From assembly GCA_963706955.1 (NCBI GenBank), contig CAVPOC010000008.1:640001-704000 (forward strand): 64,000 nucleotides of DNA, given 5' to 3'. This document shows positions 34,113 to 43,961 of this stretch, one piece after another. Every line of letters starts with the position of its first letter. The first letter of the stretch is position 1. Under the pieces are notes generated by a model. That model saw only the letters and a list, made by a program, of their open reading frames with translations, was not told where the DNA came from and ran no database searches. Source of the DNA: an uncultured Verrucomicrobiae bacterium (lineage in GTDB: Bacteria > Verrucomicrobiota > Verrucomicrobiia > Chthoniobacterales > Terrimicrobiaceae). A program made the translations under genes and the position numbers.

Positions 34113-34976
34113 TCAGACGCCGCGAACCTGGGAAAGTCGGAAGAACTGTTCTGCGGTCGCGGTGGTCTGGCGCGCCACCGCCTCGAGGGTGCTCCCACGA
34201 TCTCGGGCAATCTGTTCGGCGACCAGCCGCGTAAATGCCGGCTCGCATCGCTCGCCGCGATGCGGGACCGGAGCTAAATACGGACAATCAGTTTCCACCA
34301 TATAGCGATCCTCTGGAACAGTTACAGCCGTTTCGCGAACAAGCTTGGCGTTCTTAAAGGTGACAACTCCGGTAAACGAAACAAGGTGGCCGAGCGCAAT
34401 GACGTCCATTGCCTGATCGGGACGGTTCCCGAAGCAGTGAAATACACCGCGCAGCCGACCCGTGTAAGGTTCCAAGATCGCCAAGGTGTCGTCCCATGCG
34501 TCGCGCTGATGAATGACAACGTTCAGTCCGAGGGCGACCGCCAAGTCGAGGTGAACGCGAAAAGCCTCTGTTTGCGCCGACTTATAGGCCCCATCCAAAA
34601 CTGCCGCCTCGGCATCCTCGGCGACTCCGGCTTGCAACGCGGCGATGGCCGGTGAGCTTTCCAGTTCCCGGCTGGGCAAATGGTGGTAGTCAAGCCCCGT
34701 CTCGCCGATGGCGGCGACTTTTGGATGCTCGGCAAGAACGCGTAAGGCGGGAAGAAAGTCCTCGACTTCGTTCTGAACGTTCGTCGGATGCACGCCTACA
34801 ACCGCGAAAACATTGGAATACCTTTCCGCCAAGGCGATTGCTCGTTCACTGCTTTCGATTCCAGTTCCAATTGTGATAATCCTGGTCACGCCAGCGGCGG
34901 TGGCATCTGCAACAACTTTGTCAAGGTCATCAGCGAAATCATGGTAGTCCAAGTGAGCGTGGGTATCGATCAACAT
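34113..34976 (-). CDS. tatD: TatD family hydrolase
   Basis: DTHAHL, GVHP, IGETGLDY, IHQR, FHCF, ETDCPYLAP. Confidence 0.93.
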   Translation of the reverse strand: MLIDTHAHLDYHDFADDLDKVVADATAAGVTRIITIGTGIESSERAIALAERYSNVFAVVGVHPTNVQNEVEDFLPALRVLAEHPKVAAIGETGLDYHHLPSRELESSPAIAALQAGVAEDAEAAVLDGAYKSAQTEAFRVHLDLAVALGLNVVIHQRDAWDDTLAILEPYTGRLRGVFHCFGNRPDQAMDVIALGHLVSFTGVVTFKNAKLVRETAVTVPEDRYMVETDCPYLAPVPHRGERCEPAFTRLVAEQIARDRGSTLEAVARQTTATAEQFFRLSQVRGV

Positions 34977-35243: not shown

Positions 35244-35501
35244 ATGAATACAACGAAAACACTCCTTGCGGGCGCAGCTGTTGCCGGTCTGATGACCGGA
35301 TCGATGGCCGTCCGCGCCTTCGCAGCCGGCGAACCAACTCCCGCGGGAGTTTCGCTCCAGACCATGGGGGACAAGGGCGCGCACGCCTGCAAAGGACAAA
35401 ACGCCTGTAAAGGGCAGGGCGGCTGCAAGTCCGGTGACGCGGGCTGTAAGGGCAAGAACACCTGCAAGGGCAAAGGCGGCTGCGCCACCAAGGGCAGCTA
35501 G
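35244..35501 (+). CDS. Secreted Cys-rich RiPP precursor, bufferin-type (six Cys)
   Basis: Signal-like N-terminus ending near RAFA; core CKGQNACKGQGGC...CKGKNTCKGKGGC; immediately upstream of DUF692. Confidence 0.85.
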   Translation: MNTTKTLLAGAAVAGLMTGSMAVRAFAAGEPTPAGVSLQTMGDKGAHACKGQNACKGQGGCKSGDAGCKGKNTCKGKGGCATKGS

Positions 35502-35545
35502 CTGGAAGTCCAAGCTAAGAAGCCTCTGGCGGCTTAGCTAAGCAA

Positions 35546-35589
35546 TCGAAAGGCCGCCGCTTTCGCCCATGAAGGCGGCGGTGCTTCGA
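35546..35589 (+). promoter_or_regulatory. Intergenic stem-loop between the precursor and the MNIO gene
   Basis: GCCGCCGCTTTC-gcccat-GAAGGCGGCGGT 12-bp stem (two G-U pairs) with outer TCGAA/TTCGA pairing; no long U tract. Confidence 0.65.
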
Positions 35590-35604
35590 AACAAATAAGC
35601 AAAG

Positions 35605-36456
35605 ATGCCTGCGAATCCTTTTAACGCTTACACGGACTACGGAATCGGAATCGGTCTGCGCGTGCCGCACTATCGGCATATCCTCGAGAAGAAGCCGGTC
35701 GTCGATTGGTTTGAAATCATCTCGGAGAATTTCATGGTGGATGGTGGCCGTCCCCTTGAAGTGCTCGATTCGATTTTGGAGCAATACCGGGTGGTCCAGC
35801 ATGGAGTGGCGATCTATTTTGGATCGGCGGACAAACTCAACCGCGAGCACCTCAAGAAGCTCAAGCGCCTCGTGCAGCGCACCAATACCCCCTGGCTCTC
35901 CGATCATCTCTGCTGGGGGAGCGTCGACGGTCGCTATACCCACGATCTGCTACCGATGCCTTATACCTTCGCGGCCGCCAAGGTGACCGCGCAAAAGATT
36001 TGTGAGGCGCGCGATTTTCTCGAGGTGCCCATCTGCGTGGAGAACGTGAGCAGCTATGCGGAGTTTCACGCCTCGGAGATGACCGAATGGGAGTTCCTTA
36101 GCGAAGTCGTCGAACTGGCCGATTGCGGAATTCTCCTCGATGTTAATAACATCTACGTCTCCTCCCAGAACCACAACTTCGACCCGTACGATTACCTAAA
36201 TAACATTCCGCACCATCGGGTCGGGCAGATCCACATTGCCGGCCATTCCAAATTCGAAAAATACATTCTCGACACCCACGATCATCCCGTTCTCGATCCG
36301 GTCTGGAAGATGTATGGCCACGCTCTCCAGCGGATCGGTCACACCGCCACCTTGCTCGAATGGGATGACCGCATTCCCTCCTTTGACGAGGTTCACAATG
36401 AAGCGCGCAAAGCCCTCAACTTCCAACAGCAGCATCTCGAAAGCAAAGTTGCGTGA
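35605..36456 (+). CDS. DUF692 multinuclear non-heme iron oxidase (MNIO), BufB-like
   Basis: GIGLR.PH, EIISENF, HGV, SDHLCW, DLLP, ENVSSY, LLDVNNIYV, HIAGH, DTH, LLEWD. Confidence 0.95.
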   Translation: MPANPFNAYTDYGIGIGLRVPHYRHILEKKPVVDWFEIISENFMVDGGRPLEVLDSILEQYRVVQHGVAIYFGSADKLNREHLKKLKRLVQRTNTPWLSDHLCWGSVDGRYTHDLLPMPYTFAAAKVTAQKICEARDFLEVPICVENVSSYAEFHASEMTEWEFLSEVVELADCGILLDVNNIYVSSQNHNFDPYDYLNNIPHHRVGQIHIAGHSKFEKYILDTHDHPVLDPVWKMYGHALQRIGHTATLLEWDDRIPSFDEVHNEARKALNFQQQHLESKVA

Positions 36457-37360
36457 AGTCCGGTCCAGAGCCGATTTGCTCGACTTGCAACGGTCGATGG
36501 CCGGCGCCATCTTTCGGCCTCTTACGCCAGCGTGGCGGATGCAAACCAATCTTCCCGACGGGAACAACCTGCGCGCAGCGGCATCCGAATTCATCAAGCC
36601 CAACGACCGACTGACTTCGTTTGAGCGGCTCGAAATCTACAACCGTCAATATTGGTTCCGCCTGCTCGATTGTCTCTATGAAGATTATCCCGGCCTGCTA
36701 GCGGTGCTTGGGGAAAGACGATTCCTACGGTGCGTCCGGGCTTATCTTGCGCGCTATCCGTCGGATTCTTTCGCCCTGCGCGACCTCGGCTCACGGTTGG
36801 AGCAATTCCTTCGCGACGAACCGCAGTGGAGCGGCCCGCGCCAGGCCCTCGCCCTGGATATGGTGCGCTTTGAATGGGCACAGGTAGTCGCTTTTGACGG
36901 ACCTTCGAAGCCTCCAATCACGACTGATCAAATTCTCGACACGCCAGCCGACAAGTTGCGCCTCGGCCTTCAGCCTTATCTAAGTCTCCTCAAACTCGAC
37001 TATGCCGTCGATGATTTCGTGGTCGCTCTGAAGCAGCGCGCGACGGATGGCTTACGTGGTGAAGCCAGCAATGCTTTCGATTCTGCTCCGAAAGCGGTGC
37101 GGCGCAAACAACGGCTCCGCCTGCCAGGGCGAAGCCGAGTTTTTCTGGCCGTGCATCGCCACGAAAATCGCCTCTACTTCAAGCGCCTTGAAGCCGAAGC
37201 CTTCGCGCTCCTCACTGCATTGAGCCGAGGCGTAACTCTGGCGGATGCGTGTATCGAAGCCATCTCTTCGAGCGGGAAGAGCGAGGTCAATTGGCCTCCC
37301 AAAATTCAAGCCTGGTTTCAGAACTGGGCGGCTCTGGGCTGGCTCTGTCGAGCGAAATGA
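36449..37360 (+). CDS. DUF2063 MNIO partner protein, BufC-like
   Basis: RLEIYNRQYWFRLLDCLYEDYPGL, YLARYPS, DMVRFEWA; TTG start overlapping the DUF692 stop (start uncertain). Confidence 0.88.
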   Translation: MREVRSRADLLDLQRSMAGAIFRPLTPAWRMQTNLPDGNNLRAAASEFIKPNDRLTSFERLEIYNRQYWFRLLDCLYEDYPGLLAVLGERRFLRCVRAYLARYPSDSFALRDLGSRLEQFLRDEPQWSGPRQALALDMVRFEWAQVVAFDGPSKPPITTDQILDTPADKLRLGLQPYLSLLKLDYAVDDFVVALKQRATDGLRGEASNAFDSAPKAVRRKQRLRLPGRSRVFLAVHRHENRLYFKRLEAEAFALLTALSRGVTLADACIEAISSSGKSEVNWPPKIQAWFQNWAALGWLCRAK

Positions 37361-37851
37361 ATAGGTTTGTCAACTCGATCGGCCGCGCCTACGAGAAGTT
37401 CGCGACGGTTGCGAATTACCTGCAAGCGCCCTTGTTGCTGGCCGTGCGCGTATTCTTCTTTTGGCAACTGTTCCTTGCAGGCAAAGGCAAGCTCCTGAAC
37501 ATCGACAAGACGGCCGAGTTTTTTGGCAGTCTTAATATTCCGATGCCTGTCTTTAGCGCCTACCTGGCCGGGGCGACCGAATGCTTCGGTGGCCTGCTGT
37601 TGGTGATTGGGCTTGCCTCGCGCTTGGTGGCGATCCCGGTGGCCTTCACGATGATCGTGGCATACGTGACCGCCGACTACGAGGCGTTCACCAGCATTTT
37701 CAGCGATCCGGACAAATTCGTCGGCGCGGCCCCATTTCCGTTCTTGCTTTCGGCTCTCCTGGTGCTCGCTTTTGGCCCGGGCGCCCTCTCGGTCGACGCG
37801 CTGATCAAGCGGTTCGCGGTTACGAGACGACCCGAGAGGCTCCGATTCTAG
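37357..37851 (+). CDS. DoxX family membrane protein, BufD-like
   Basis: LAVR.FF...GKGK, ECFGGLLL.IGL.SR, GPGALSVD; ATGA overlap with the upstream gene. Confidence 0.92.
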   Translation: MNRFVNSIGRAYEKFATVANYLQAPLLLAVRVFFFWQLFLAGKGKLLNIDKTAEFFGSLNIPMPVFSAYLAGATECFGGLLLVIGLASRLVAIPVAFTMIVAYVTADYEAFTSIFSDPDKFVGAAPFPFLLSALLVLAFGPGALSVDALIKRFAVTRRPERLRF

Positions 37852-37855
37852 CCCG

Positions 37856-39598
37856 ATGTCGCGGATTTTCTCCATTCTTCTCGCTGCCATCTTCCTCTCG
37901 TGGCCAGCGCGAGCAGACGAGACCATCGATTGGCAACCATGGTCCGAGGAGGTTTTTGAGCGGGCGCGCGCGGAGAACCGATTTGTTTTTCTCGATCTCG
38001 GTGCAGTCTGGTGCCACTGGTGCCACGTCATGGAGGATATCACCTACCGCGACCCAGAGGTGATACGGCTCCTTCGCTCGCGCTACATCGCCGTTCGCGT
38101 AGATCAAGATTCTCGTCCGGATCTGTCGAATCGGTATGAGGATTATGGCTGGCCCGCAACAATCGTCTTCGATGCCAATGGCAATGAAATTGTCAAACGC
38201 CAAGGCTACATTCCCCCGGGGCCGATGGCCTCGATGCTTCAGGCAATCATCGATGATCCCACACCGGGACCTTCGGTCGTCCCTGAAGAGAAGCCGATTG
38301 CGGCCAGCACTGCATCATTGGCTCTCGAAACGAGCGGCGCATTGCGAAGCCGTTTGCTGGATGCCTACGATCCGGAAAACCTAGGCTGGGGAACCGTTCA
38401 CAAGTTCCTTGACTGGAACATTATCGAATACTGCATGTCGGTCTCAGCTCGCGAGTCCGATGGAGCCCGCTGGGAGCAGATGGCGCGGGAGACCCTTTCT
38501 GCGCAACGCAACCTCTTCGACCCGGTCTGGGGAGGCGTTTATCAATATTCGACCGATGGGGATTGGAAGCACCCGCACTACGAGAAACTCCTTCAATTTC
38601 AGGCCGAGAATCTTCGTATTTATTCCCTCGCCTACGCGCGCTGGGGCGACCCTCAGTATTTGGACGACGCCCGGCAGATCCGCCGCTACCTGCAGGATTT
38701 TCTGACCAGTCCAGAAGGAGTCTTCTACACCAGCCAGGACGCTGACCTTGTGCAGGGCGAGCACTCAGAAGGATATTTTGCTTTGAGTGACCACGAACGT
38801 CGGCAGCAAGGGATTCCACGAGTCGATACCCATGTTTATTCACGCGAGAACGGATGGGCGATCCAGGCCCTTGCCACTCTCTACGCGGTCACCGGCGAAC
38901 CAGAAACGCTGCGCGATGCAGTGGTCGCGGCAGATTGGATTGTCAAACACCGCTCATTGCCCGGAGGCGGTTTTTCCCACGACGAAGAGGACGTCGCCGG
39001 TCCCTACCTTGGTGACACTCTCTTCATGGGCAACGCCTTGCTGACTCTCTATGCAGTCACCGGCGATCGATTGTGGCTGGAACGTGCCAGATCCGCGGCA
39101 AACTATATCGACGCGCATTTCAAGAGCGATACCGGCTTCTCCACAACTGTCTCGTCGAACTCTCTCGCTCCGACCAGACAACTCGATGAGAACGTCGTCG
39201 TAGCGAGGTTTACCAATCTGTTGAATCAATACACCGGCGATGCCAAGTTTCGGGAAATGGCCGAGCACGCGATGAAATATCTCGTCTCCCAAGGCGAGCT
39301 CAAACGGCGAGGCTATCAAGTGGCCGGCTTGCTCCTTGCCGATCATGAACTTTCCGTAGCTCCCCTGCACATCACCGTCGTGGGAAATAAAGGGGATCCG
39401 GCGGCACGTGTTTTGTTCCTTGCCGCGCTAAAGCAGCCGACCACTTACAAGCGCGTCGAATGGTTTGACGAGGCCGAGGGTCCTCTGCCGCACGCGGATG
39501 TGGAATACCCCCAAATCGGAAGAGCCGCGGCATTTCTCTGCACAGAAAAGAGTTGTTCCGCTCCGATCTTTACGCCGGAAAAATTTAAGGTGAGGTAA
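37856..39598 (+). CDS. Secreted thioredoxin-domain protein (DUF255/YyaL/SSP411-like)
   Basis: Signal peptide ending ARA; IDWQPW, WCHWCHVME, RPDL, GWPAT, GG..QYSTD..W.HPHYEK, FYTSQDAD. Confidence 0.88.
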   Translation: MSRIFSILLAAIFLSWPARADETIDWQPWSEEVFERARAENRFVFLDLGAVWCHWCHVMEDITYRDPEVIRLLRSRYIAVRVDQDSRPDLSNRYEDYGWPATIVFDANGNEIVKRQGYIPPGPMASMLQAIIDDPTPGPSVVPEEKPIAASTASLALETSGALRSRLLDAYDPENLGWGTVHKFLDWNIIEYCMSVSARESDGARWEQMARETLSAQRNLFDPVWGGVYQYSTDGDWKHPHYEKLLQFQAENLRIYSLAYARWGDPQYLDDARQIRRYLQDFLTSPEGVFYTSQDADLVQGEHSEGYFALSDHERRQQGIPRVDTHVYSRENGWAIQALATLYAVTGEPETLRDAVVAADWIVKHRSLPGGGFSHDEEDVAGPYLGDTLFMGNALLTLYAVTGDRLWLERARSAANYIDAHFKSDTGFSTTVSSNSLAPTRQLDENVVVARFTNLLNQYTGDAKFREMAEHAMKYLVSQGELKRRGYQVAGLLLADHELSVAPLHITVVGNKGDPAARVLFLAALKQPTTYKRVEWFDEAEGPLPHADVEYPQIGRAAAFLCTEKSCSAPIFTPEKFKVR

Positions 39599-39628: not shown

Positions 39629-40645
39629 CTACCACTGCACCACCGAACTGGCGTAGGTAAGTCCCCCGCCGAACACAACCATCAGGATGTAATCTCCGAC
39701 CTTGAATCGACCTGTCCGATTGCCTTCGTCCAGCGCAATGGCGACGGCAGCTGCAGAGGTATTGCCGTAACGATCGAGGTTCACCTGAAATTTCGAGAGA
39801 GGAACGTTCAAGCGACCGGCAAGGGCCTCGATGATCCTAAGGTTCGCTTGGTGCGGAATGATGCAGGTGAGATCATCGACGGCAAGACCGCTCTGCTTCA
39901 ACGCACGGTTCGCTGCCGCCAGCATGGAGGTCACGGCCTGCTTGAAGGTTTCGCGGCCGTTCATATGGAGGGTGTTAAGCCGCTGGTCGAAGTTCTCCTT
40001 GGTGACGGGGATGGCGCATCCCCCACCCGGCATATGCAGGATATCGGCGAAGTTTCCGTCGCTGCCCATGAAGGTGGTGATCACGCCGTGCGAGCCCGCG
40101 CGCCAGCGAAGGACGGCTGCGCCCGCCCCATCACCGAAGAGCACGCAAGTATTACGATCGCCCCAATTCACGATCGAGCTCAGCTTATCGGCCCCGATTA
40201 CCAAAACCGTGTTGTAGGTGTGGTTGCTGATGAACTGCTGGGCGACTTCGATTCCGTAAAGAAATCCCGAGCATGCTGCCGAAACGTCGAAGCAGGCGGC
40301 CTTATCGGCTCCAAGCAACCGCTGAACATGGCAGGCCGTCGAGGGAAAGAACGTGTCCGGCGTAACCGTCGCCACAATGATCAGATCGATTTCGGTAGCG
40401 TTCACCCCGGCTTGCTCCATGGCATTGCGCGCGGCAGAAGCTGCCATGTGGCTAGTGTGCTCGCCCTCAGCGGCGACACGCCGCTCTTTGATCCCCGTCC
40501 GGGTGGTGATCCACTCATCGGTTGTCTCGACGATTTTCTCGAGATCAGCGTTGGTGAGGATCCGCGCCGGGACATAGCTGCCGGTCCCAATGATGGAAAC
40601 GGCGCGGCTAGGCTGGCGGGACCGCGTCCGCGGGATTTTCTTCAT
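39629..40645 (-). CDS. fabH: 3-oxoacyl-ACP synthase III
   Basis: GTGSY, WITTRTGIKERR, AACSGF, FGDGAGA, PHQAN, YGNTSAA, FGGG; ATG 40645. Confidence 0.96.
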   Translation of the reverse strand: MKKIPRTRSRQPSRAVSIIGTGSYVPARILTNADLEKIVETTDEWITTRTGIKERRVAAEGEHTSHMAASAARNAMEQAGVNATEIDLIIVATVTPDTFFPSTACHVQRLLGADKAACFDVSAACSGFLYGIEVAQQFISNHTYNTVLVIGADKLSSIVNWGDRNTCVLFGDGAGAAVLRWRAGSHGVITTFMGSDGNFADILHMPGGGCAIPVTKENFDQRLNTLHMNGRETFKQAVTSMLAAANRALKQSGLAVDDLTCIIPHQANLRIIEALAGRLNVPLSKFQVNLDRYGNTSAAAVAIALDEGNRTGRFKVGDYILMVVFGGGLTYASSVVQW

Positions 40646-42368: not shown

Positions 42369-43961
42369 CTAGGGTCCTGCCGAGCGCCATTCCCGCCGCG
42401 GGGCACGTGCCAGTAAGAACTTGCGAAGCCACGCGAGCAGCGCGTGAGCCGGGTGCAAGGCAAAGGCGGTAAAGATCGGATCGAACGGGTAGCGGAATTC
42501 CCATTGAACGGACCCAAATAATGTCGCCAGCAGGCCGAGAAGGGCGATTCCTGTCAACAGCGGAATTCTCAGATCGACTGGCCCGGCCAAGCGTGCCAAC
42601 AACAAGCCGAATGCGCCGAACAAGAACCAGCAATAGTTTGGAATGAGTTTTCGGCTTATGTTGAACAAGGGATCGCCCGGCGCGTTGTAAGGAGGCGTTG
42701 CGGACACCTCCCAAGGCTTCACGTCAGGCTGCCAAGGGAGCCAAGAACCCTGCTTTCTTGTCTCATTGGCGACAAACAAAGGCGTCGAGGGGAGGAGATC
42801 TCCCTCGCTGGGCAAAGCCAAGCCCTTCGCAGTGTAGCGGGCATAGACCTCCTCTCTTTGCCGGGCGAAGGAGCGGCTCAGATCTCGCAAATTGCTGATC
42901 TTGAAAGTCTTCTTATCACGGTAATCAAACACGTTTTCGAGGTGCTCAAGGTAGCGCAAAAGAGAACCTCCTGGATCTCGCCAGATCGATTCCATTCCGG
43001 CCTTTCTCAGCAGATCGAAATCGGAGCCTGGGGCCTCCTTTTGCACCGTATAGATCAGCGAATTGAACATCCGCTGGGTGGAACATCGAAAGAAAATATC
43101 CGAGGTGATTTCGTGCTGCAGGTACACTGGGGTCGAAAGGATCTTTGCCTCAACGAAGTCTGCCAGTTGCCGGGAGGCTGGGCCATTTTCCGGCGAGATC
43201 ACGCGCTCCTGCACGAATAAGCGATAAAAGGGAAGGTGTGCATCGCCGAGCTTGGCGAAACAAAATTCACCATACCTAAAGTAATTGAATGAGCACATCG
43301 CCAGATAAACTGCCGCATAAATAGTCAAAAAAACGCCCGCATTCAGGAACCGACGAGCGAGGGTTACGTTTGCAGGGAGGAACGGAAGAAGGAAACACAA
43401 CAGGAAAGTTTGATTTCCCGGCCGATTGAGAACCAAAAGGGAGGCGAGCACTGCGCTGCCCGCCCACGCCCCAACGCGGCTCGAACCCATGGCGAAGAAA
43501 GTAAAACTAAACCAGAAGCAAAGCAGAACGGTCTGGAGGGTTTCGGAACCTACCGAGTTAAAGGACCAGAACAGCCAAAGGTTTAAGGCCACCAGGACGT
43601 TCAGAGCCCACGCCAAGAGGAGGCTGAACTCGCGCAAGACGGCGAAAACCGCGGTGATGCTTGCCGCGTAGGCAAGGGACAGAATCACCTCAATCCCTCC
43701 CTCCCCGAAGATCTGGAAGCATGTTCCGTAAAAGAGTGGCGTTAGCGGCGTGCGAAAGAGCATCAGCAGCGGAAACTCCGGCTCGAGCGCGAAAAGGTCT
43801 CGAAACCAGAGGAAGTACGTCGTCATGTCCCGTCCGGCCCGCAAGGGAAAGAAAAGCGCGAGGAGCCAGAACCACGCAACCATCACGAGGAAAGAGGCCA
43901 ACAATGGAGAGAACCTTCGCCAAGCCTCTGCGCTCCGAATCGAGGGGCGCGTGCTATTCAC
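42369..43961 (-). CDS. Multi-pass membrane protein, possibly a GT-C fold glycosyltransferase
   Basis: Many hydrophobic segments with a central soluble loop; D...Y, RTPLTPLF, SETL, LNRP pattern. Confidence 0.6.
   Translation of the reverse strand: MNSTRPSIRSAEAWRRFSPLLASFLVMVAWFWLLALFFPLRAGRDMTTYFLWFRDLFALEPEFPLLMLFRTPLTPLFYGTCFQIFGEGGIEVILSLAYAASITAVFAVLREFSLLLAWALNVLVALNLWLFWSFNSVGSETLQTVLLCFWFSFTFFAMGSSRVGAWAGSAVLASLLVLNRPGNQTFLLCFLLPFLPANVTLARRFLNAGVFLTIYAAVYLAMCSFNYFRYGEFCFAKLGDAHLPFYRLFVQERVISPENGPASRQLADFVEAKILSTPVYLQHEITSDIFFRCSTQRMFNSLIYTVQKEAPGSDFDLLRKAGMESIWRDPGGSLLRYLEHLENVFDYRDKKTFKISNLRDLSRSFARQREEVYARYTAKGLALPSEGDLLPSTPLFVANETRKQGSWLPWQPDVKPWEVSATPPYNAPGDPLFNISRKLIPNYCWFLFGAFGLLLARLAGPVDLRIPLLTGIALLGLLATLFGSVQWEFRYPFDPIFTAFALHPAHALLAWLRKFLLARAPRREWRSAGP

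Follow-up and report, generated by a model that had tools for sequence, protein, structure and literature searches.

What does a predicted secreted protein of the YyaL/SPATA20 (DUF255) family do at the end of a bufferin gene cluster? The question is raised by a 64,000-nucleotide stretch of DNA from an uncultured Verrucomicrobiae bacterium (contig CAVPOC010000008.1, positions 640,001 to 704,000; hereafter the window), in which calls of open reading frames (ORFs) place five genes, all on the plus strand, between positions 35244 and 39598. The first four encode an 85-residue precursor peptide of the Buf2 type with six cysteines (35244–35501), an MNIO (DUF692) enzyme of the BufB type with 283 residues (35605–36456), a DUF2063-RRE partner protein of ~303 residues (BufC, or PME-type 1; 36449–37360), and a BufD-like DoxX membrane protein of 164 residues that has a single cysteine, C76 (37357–37851). 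The fifth encodes the 580-residue DUF255 protein (37856–39598). We find that the link between secreted DUF255 genes and Buf2 clusters is not due to chance, and we put the probability at roughly 45% that the DUF255 protein acts in the periplasm as a thiol reductase and so keeps the predicted thiooxazole thiols of the Buf2 peptide free for copper.

The arrangement of the cluster is as a first-pass annotation, made from the sequence alone, had described it. In particular, the genes share one orientation and the ORF coordinates put the last four in overlap or within 4 nt of each other (an 8-nt overlap between the MNIO and DUF2063 genes, the latter of which probably starts with TTG, a 4-nt overlap between the DUF2063 and DoxX genes, and a 4-nt gap between the DoxX and DUF255 genes). 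Each of the four protein families it had named was also recovered with the corresponding profile, that is, PF05114 for the MNIO (352 bits, E 2.6e-105), PF09836 for the DUF2063 protein (52 bits, E 7.9e-14), PF07681 for DoxX (72 bits, E 7.2e-20), and PF03190 for the fifth gene product (99 bits, E 4.3e-28). The MNIO, which a genome-wide search found to be the only one in the genome, scored 344.6 bits against NF050167, the NCBIfam model of BufB (cut-off 310), and fell below the cut-offs of the models for HvfB (244 versus 360), ChrH, ApyH, and MbnB; the DUF2063 protein fell below that of the HvfC model (39 bits). The precursor has a Sec signal at residues 1–27, as predicted by reading the sequence, followed by a 58-residue core, and its cysteines at positions 49, 55, 61, 68, 74, and 80 give a spacing of 6-6-7-6-6. 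It has no Pfam match, DUF2282 included, and no EGKCG repeat. The precursor–MNIO–DUF2063(–DoxX) gene order is that of Buf2, whereas both the precursor and the MNIO lack the features of Buf1 or EGKCG/oxazolin systems. The earlier bufferin-type reading therefore holds, as the BufB cut-off is passed, and the type can be specified as Buf2 (Buf_6/12Cys), to the exclusion of oxazolins and Buf1.

The sole NCBIfam match of the precursor was to BufA2 (NF050166), at 33.7 bits against a cut-off of 60 and with an alignment that covers the 79-position model no further than position 65. Scores of 36–39 bits were obtained for other compact precursors and of 64–85 bits for proteobacterial ones, and the cut-off was passed by four of four scanned precursors with a 6-6-7-6-13 spacing and by none of three compact ones. 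Because of this score pattern we take the precursor not for a strict BufA2 equivalog but for a Buf2-like subtype of compact form. (Note that a control search with NF050166 found no match in Caulobacter, so that this cut-off is an imperfect test of membership.) In the 55 precursors compared, all taken from fetched loci, two spacings predominate alongside a few longer forms: the compact one is found in Verrucomicrobiota, Acidobacteriota, and Planctomycetota, and the 6-6-7-6-13 one mostly in Pseudomonadota. Five of the six cysteines are invariant across 46 aligned precursors.

Several observations extend this picture of the precursors. The same genome holds an orphan second Buf2-like precursor of 83 residues (contig C6:287820–288070, or L062:1414–1662; 81% identity over 65 residues), which lies 3′ of a sequence that by eye resembles a tRNA, near a DoxX-like gene on the opposite strand, and which would depend on the single MNIO of the genome in trans; the regions upstream of the orphan and of the operon precursor did not align. 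Soil RNA-library contigs from many other organisms align to the Cys-rich part of the operon precursor (window positions 35380–35490) and, although contigs tell nothing of level or strand, compact Buf2 precursors therefore seem common in these libraries. A four-Cys variant of Buf2 follows genes for a secreted thioredoxin-like protein and a cytoplasmic YyaL in another genome (L050:2061–5441; G136:C207), and locus L082 likewise holds a four-Cys precursor.

The DUF255 protein has three parts, as expected of PF03190: a thioredoxin domain whose motif is C53-H-W-C56, then an (alpha/alpha)6 barrel, and at the C terminus a domain that contains C562-x4-C567. Its AF2 model (pLDDT 96.5) matched PDB entry 7TKV, an uncharacterised protein, along the whole chain (TM 0.81; Z 42.4, root-mean-square deviation 2.6, 508 residues aligned), and the next structural matches, AGE-family epimerases and GH76 enzymes (Z 26–29), covered the barrel. 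In an alignment of the query with 100 of 270 fetched proteins, picked for full length and spread, all four cysteines were retained in 98–99 of the 100 homologues, and the polar barrel residues D222, Q230, H241, E243, K244, D295, D297, H375, D387, N446, and R451 in 91–99. The N terminus reaches an 11-residue hydropathy mean of 3.0, versus −0.4 in the cytoplasmic YyaL encoded on contig C2 of the same genome, and the protein is predicted to be secreted. That YyaL is 692 residues long and shares ~26% identity with the operon protein, which at 580 residues departs from the canonical cytoplasmic form (~690 residues, no signal peptide). Judged by sequence, the operon protein thus belongs to a signal-peptide-bearing subfamily of YyaL/SPATA20 that is distinct from cytoplasmic YyaL. 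(We dropped a reading of C53-H-W-C56-H57 as a c-type cytochrome motif; the motif is part of a thioredoxin fold, and cytoplasmic YyaL has it unchanged.) According to the accessible part of a 2019 paper, the YyaL/SPATA20 family is entirely unstudied in bacteria (PMC6822775).

Secreted DUF255 genes and Buf2 genes occur together well beyond this locus. Among 151 genomes of the order, in which the secreted type was called at ≥50% identity, 19 carry it and all 19 have an MNIO gene, as compared with 14 of the 132 non-carriers; in the control group of genomes with cytoplasmic YyaL only, an MNIO gene was present in 4 of 30. The DUF255 gene is adjacent to the cluster in 10 of the 19 carriers (the full five-gene order in six, DUF255 immediately behind the RRE gene without a DoxX in three, and a 4-kb insert in one) and lies elsewhere, in varied contexts, in the other nine. 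A further 350 genomes of the phylum yielded three carriers, each with an MNIO gene, two of which, from another order, have the identical five-gene arrangement.

A survey of the best 80 of 591 GTDB loci (two of them from genomes that duplicate those of the order survey) gave a similar picture. Most of the printed N termini show, by eye, a similar leader, and within 8 kb of the DUF255 gene there was an MNIO gene at 22 loci, a Buf2-type precursor at 26, and any cluster gene at 27, with four loci having a precursor nearby and no MNIO in the flank. Such loci make up 8 of 14 in Verrucomicrobiota, 3 of 13 in Acidobacteriota, 3 of 7 in Planctomycetota, 12 of 32 in Pseudomonadota, 1 of 3 in Bdellovibrionota, and none of the remaining 11. 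Across these five phyla DUF255 lies upstream or downstream of the cluster, divergent or convergent, in at least four gene orders (precursor–MNIO–RRE–DoxX–DUF255, DUF255–precursor–MNIO–RRE–DoxX, CcdA–DoxX–DUF255–precursor–precursor–MNIO–RRE, and a convergent form), and adjacency changes state 18 times on a FastTree tree of 74 ingroup rows that leaves out six frameshifted or truncated loci. Of the 53 non-adjacent loci, 50 were followed up by whole-genome searches, which found an MNIO match in 46, a BufB above cut-off in 40, and a Buf2-like peptide in 38 (36 of them at E <1e-10). The co-occurrence pattern is repeated in three lineages: in an unbiased sample of the order of genome G520, DUF255 and Buf2 overlap in 3 of 4 carriers versus 16 of 146 other genomes (none on one contig), and in an unbiased sample of the phylum of G507 in 4 of 7 carriers versus 12 of 143 others (one adjacent), the centre genome being excluded in both. 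The association between DUF255 and Buf2 is thus not a chance one, and gene 5 very probably has some role in the Buf2 system.

How it might do so is suggested by redox partners of the subfamily. DsbD and CcdA bring reductant to the periplasm. Six of 150 representatives (50% clustering) exceed 800 residues, and all six (P0130, P0191, P0239, P0244, P0257, and P0258) are fusions in which an N-terminal DUF255 module is joined to DsbD_TM and a thioredoxin; the C-terminal CxxxxC is kept in all of them, and in two the N-terminal thioredoxin is gone and the barrel retained. (In genome G803 a suspected DsbD fusion proved not to be one.) At the 80 GTDB loci, three operons contain CcdA and a fourth has both a DsbD_TM gene and a thioredoxin, MsrA being present in three, so that the subfamily, with its predicted exported CxxC thioredoxin, is genetically linked to DsbD/CcdA through six fusions and four neighbouring DsbD_TM genes. 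The genome studied here encodes a DsbD, ~290 kb from the cluster, and a DsbB; at 92.5% completeness it gave no match to VKOR or to PF13462, the sole DsbA-type family searched. Since every one of the six long homologues is fused to DsbD, and since some of the operons include CcdA, gene 5 likely encodes a periplasmic thiol reductase.

Published work on related peptides, as far as the sources were accessible, describes disulfides on which such a reductase could act. Indeed, the −12 and −20 Da forms of bufferins are disulfides of thiooxazole thiols (PMC11626156), and Buf2 occurs as a main −18 Da form and, in lesser amount, a −20 Da form, each of which reduction converts to −16 Da, with CysI and CysVI unmodified and probably joined as a disulfide (PMC11626156 and its preprint). 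Bulbicupramide was obtained in its disulfide form and, after reduction, bound Cu(I) (PMC12538549), and disulfides are suspected in the aggregation of fontiphorin (PMC13097082).

On the observed genes, families, fold, linkage, and fusions we base the following proposal, in which export, modification, the role in copper, and the activity and client of DUF255 are all conditional. The MNIO and the DUF2063-RRE protein would, very probably, oxidise the four inner cysteines (core positions 28, 34, 41, and 47) with a loss of 4 Da each, by analogy with Caulobacter Buf2. Sec would export the 58-residue core, in which CysI and CysVI would form one disulfide, for a net loss of 18 Da, and the thiooxazole thiols could pair as well into a labile disulfide, giving the −20 Da form of Buf2. 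DUF255, its barrel perhaps holding the client peptide, might then reopen this labile disulfide and so recycle the copper-binding capacity, a step that we hold to be plausible at somewhat less than even odds. DsbD would re-reduce DUF255 in this genome, as fused DsbD or operon-borne CcdA would in relatives.

A number of findings weigh against the reductase proposal. The secreted DUF255 is optional for the Buf2 family and often located elsewhere in the genome: Buf2 genomes that carry it number only 3 among 19 in the G520 sample and 4 among 16 in the G507 sample, at 53 of the 80 GTDB loci Buf2 genes are absent within 8 kb, 12 of the 50 genomes tested yielded no Buf2-like peptide, and no adjacent case was found among five loci of Myxococcota, two of Bacteroidota, and two of Melainabacteria. 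In one of nine genomes a cytoplasmic YyaL and a secreted thioredoxin stand upstream of the Buf2 cluster, and the buf2 operon of Caulobacter has three genes and protects against copper with no need of DUF255 (PMC11626156, in part). Fisher p-values overstate the linkage because kin are not independent. The DsbD fusions are distant (32–43% identity), and since two of them lack the CxxC domain, the function may reside in the barrel and the Cys pair of the C terminus. Finally, a related MNIO cluster in Microbulbifer is, in the accessible part of its description, not induced by copper, so that a copper role is not guaranteed.

These findings bear on what else gene 5 might be. One reading, which we judge rather unlikely, is that it encodes a reductase of general periplasmic repair, for damage by copper or oxidation, which belongs to the same stress regulon and operon as bufferin and does not act on the peptide. 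The many non-adjacent loci would fit such a role, as would the recurrence of MsrA, thioredoxins, and extracytoplasmic function (ECF) sigma factors nearby, and DsbD fusions suit any periplasmic client. However, a general reductase would leave unexplained why the adjacent precursors, at 26 of the 80 loci, are all of the Buf2 kind, and why a precursor lies near DUF255 at four loci even where the flank has no MNIO. A motif scan of the 80 loci, with hand-written patterns, found no convincing Buf1 or EGKCG precursor, even though Buf2 is the rarer type, with 864 genomes as against 4072 for Buf1 and 2583 for EGKCG (PMC12452194, Table 3; source in part).

It is improbable that gene 5 encodes a dedicated oxidase or isomerase for the CysI–CysVI disulfide, with DoxX or DsbB passing the electrons to quinone. 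The fusions and neighbours of DUF255 are of the DsbD/CcdA type, which supplies reductant, and DUF255 is retained where DoxX has been lost; nonetheless, Buf2 has one structural disulfide and DoxX is directly upstream in many loci (within 5 kb in 18 of 80). The genome also has DsbB and no DsbA-like protein found with PF13462, but that search covered one family in an incomplete genome. We consider it equally improbable that the barrel is the working part, binding, unloading, or modifying the copper-loaded peptide, perhaps in a turnover pathway with a HEXXH peptidase-like protein (see below), while the cysteines handle metal. The conserved polar residues of the barrel, its likeness to AGE-family epimerases and GH76 enzymes, the two fusions without a CxxC domain, and a HEXXH gene near DUF255 at 15 of the 80 loci could all be understood in this way, but several of the motifs are shared with cytoplasmic YyaL, which has no bufferin link, and a common fold proves no function. 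That gene 5 is a functionally unconnected passenger, transferred with the cassette among soil bacteria, is very improbable: the carriers are all soil or sediment types with a patchy distribution, and the source genome is the lone carrier among 16 sampled family members, yet gene orders are varied, adjacency occurs in several orientations across five phyla, and co-occurrence holds when the genes are far apart.

Buf2 clusters have another recurrent neighbour, the HEXXH protein just mentioned. This predicted secreted protein of ~300 residues has an invariant HExxH motif and downstream E in 15 sequences, and although it had no sequence match in Pfam, NCBIfam, or the PDB, we label it peptidase-like because of these residues and because its ESM Atlas neighbours are named M1/M61 (0.98–0.99). 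In the order survey its gene is found in 20 of 151 genomes, and 18 of the 19 DUF255 carriers have it (one by a 43-residue match only). When the protein was searched against metagenomes, Buf2 genes were present in 58 of the best 80 loci, and in 33 of the 39 loci of at least 8 kb; the HEXXH gene usually comes right after DoxX, and DUF255 was present in 10 of the 80 (one a distant fragment). Many of these loci are probably kin, as they share one gene order. In the genome studied here the gene lies away from the cluster (contig C3:580680–581600), and further examples are L065:3212–4111, L103:13536–14531, and L144–L223. The protein is a candidate enzyme for trimming or turnover of the Buf2 peptide. 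An undescribed periplasmic maintenance module for compact Buf2 bufferins, in which the secreted DUF255 reduces thiooxazole disulfides (or unloads copper) with electrons from DsbD/CcdA and the secreted HEXXH metallopeptidase trims or turns over the peptide, is a tentative extension that we regard as doubtful. By their description, the HExxH proteins called adjamnio-III, which precede MNIO–nitroreductase fusions and have 3–4 cysteines (PMC12452194, in part), appear to be a different group. In the alphaproteobacterial clusters L100, L103, L108, L125, and L139, Buf2 precursors are in tandem and a creatininase-family gene (PF02633) stands between the RRE and HEXXH genes, with CcdA upstream in three of them.

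Around the cluster lie tatD (34113–34976, minus strand; TIGR00010 above cut-off) and fabH (39629–40645, minus strand; TIGR00747 above cut-off), both outside the system. Because these two genes are direct neighbours in three of five relatives (≤0.3 kb apart, as compared with 2 kb in one and 258 kb in another), the cassette is an insertion between them, as first annotated; the same site holds the cassette in one other Verrucomicrobiae genome (L112), and since the GC content is flat across it, the insertion looks not recent. The 103-nt gap between the precursor and MNIO genes contains a strong GC-rich stem-loop, which by fold computation occupies 35546–35581 on the plus strand (−48 kcal/mol for the fold of 35495–35610; z −3.24, with none of 200 shuffles folding as well), and which could stabilise or attenuate the precursor mRNA. 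Promoter and terminator scans of the locus gave no signal above shuffle level. The stretch itself was found in soil and rhizosphere DNA sequencing runs, near homologues being labelled Terrimicrobiaceae and Chthoniobacterales, and RNA-library contigs from four runs in three studies contain fragments nearly identical to parts of the precursor, RRE, and DUF255 genes, contigs being uninformative as to transcription, level, or co-transcription. Elsewhere, a lone second DoxX paralogue (contig C8:39475–40011) shares 43% identity with the operon DoxX, and the window encodes a 530-residue probable membrane protein with no Pfam match (42369–43961, minus strand), next to what we take to be yceD–rpmF–plsX–fabH genes on one side and a coaD-like gene on the other.

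Bufferins are among the most widespread peptides that are made on the ribosome and modified after translation (RiPPs), described with only four core genes, and their thiooxazole thiols oxidise readily. We found no paper on how cells keep periplasmic thiooxazole thiols reduced, and the secreted DUF255, with its DsbD links, is a direct candidate for this job. The four-gene core is already catalogued and in itself ordinary: the accessible text of PMC12452194 gives the core set as precursor, MNIO, DUF2063, and DoxX, with other conserved genes in extremely low proportions, and its main text, so far as available, does not mention thioredoxin or DUF255; six-Cys clusters are known from Antarctic soil metagenomes (PMC8692599, in part). 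DUF255 terms are likewise absent from two supplementary spreadsheets of PMC12452194 (one in part) and from two files of PMC13097082. A literature search that did not extend to subscription papers and several supplementary PDFs found no description of a DUF255–Buf2 or peptidase–Buf2 link, and the YyaL/SSP411/SPATA20 papers it returned were mostly mammalian, none of them relevant. The first-pass annotation did not know the fifth gene from characterised operons, and our surveys make it a recurring companion; its further suggestion of an undescribed system variant stands for the fifth-gene link, which we did not find in print, but not for the catalogued core, and the fifth gene is optional. The link offers the YyaL/SPATA20 family a concrete substrate test and would, on the reductase reading, give it a first testable job. 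If the maintenance module with the HEXXH protein is true, bufferins would be recyclable copper buffers, and a family found from bacteria to mammals would gain its first defined client.

Among known systems, the closest is buf2ABC of Caulobacter vibrioides (CCNA_03001–02999), which the locus resembles in its Sec-type precursor with six Cys and in the BufB-type MNIO and DUF2063-RRE protein encoded after it. The flanking ORFs examined include no sigma factor or NsrF gene; the locus DoxX is a published core member, and the secreted DUF255 gene is what this locus adds. Compared with Buf2 of Proteobacteria, its last cysteine comes 6 residues after the fifth, instead of 13 as in proteobacterial precursors that pass NF050166 (81–85 bits). 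With Buf1, oxazolin HvfABC, and the thiooxazole captophorins fontiphorin and bulbicupramide (PMC13097082 and PMC12538549, both in part) the locus shares an MNIO–DUF2063 pair and a signal-peptide precursor; rings derived from cysteine bind Cu(I) in those peptides, which for the locus peptide is a prediction by analogy, and it differs from Buf1 and oxazolins in its precursor (no DUF2282 match or EGKCG repeat) and in the low HvfB score of its MNIO. The fifth protein is like YyaL/SSP411/SPATA20 (PF03190; 7TKV) in its whole-chain fold, CHWCH motif, barrel motifs, and C-terminal CxxxxC. Unlike cytoplasmic YyaL, it has a hydrophobic leader in place of the N-terminal motif, is ~110 residues shorter, and lacks the large barrel insertion, and the secreted type is Buf2-linked and, in some lineages, fused to DsbD. 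DsbC, DsbG, and CcmG are periplasmic reductases fed by DsbD/CcdA, and DUF255 resembles them as a predicted exported CxxC thioredoxin with an apparent DsbD-type electron source. Unlike them, it joins its thioredoxin to a barrel and a Cys-pair domain, and its reductase activity is a prediction from sequence.

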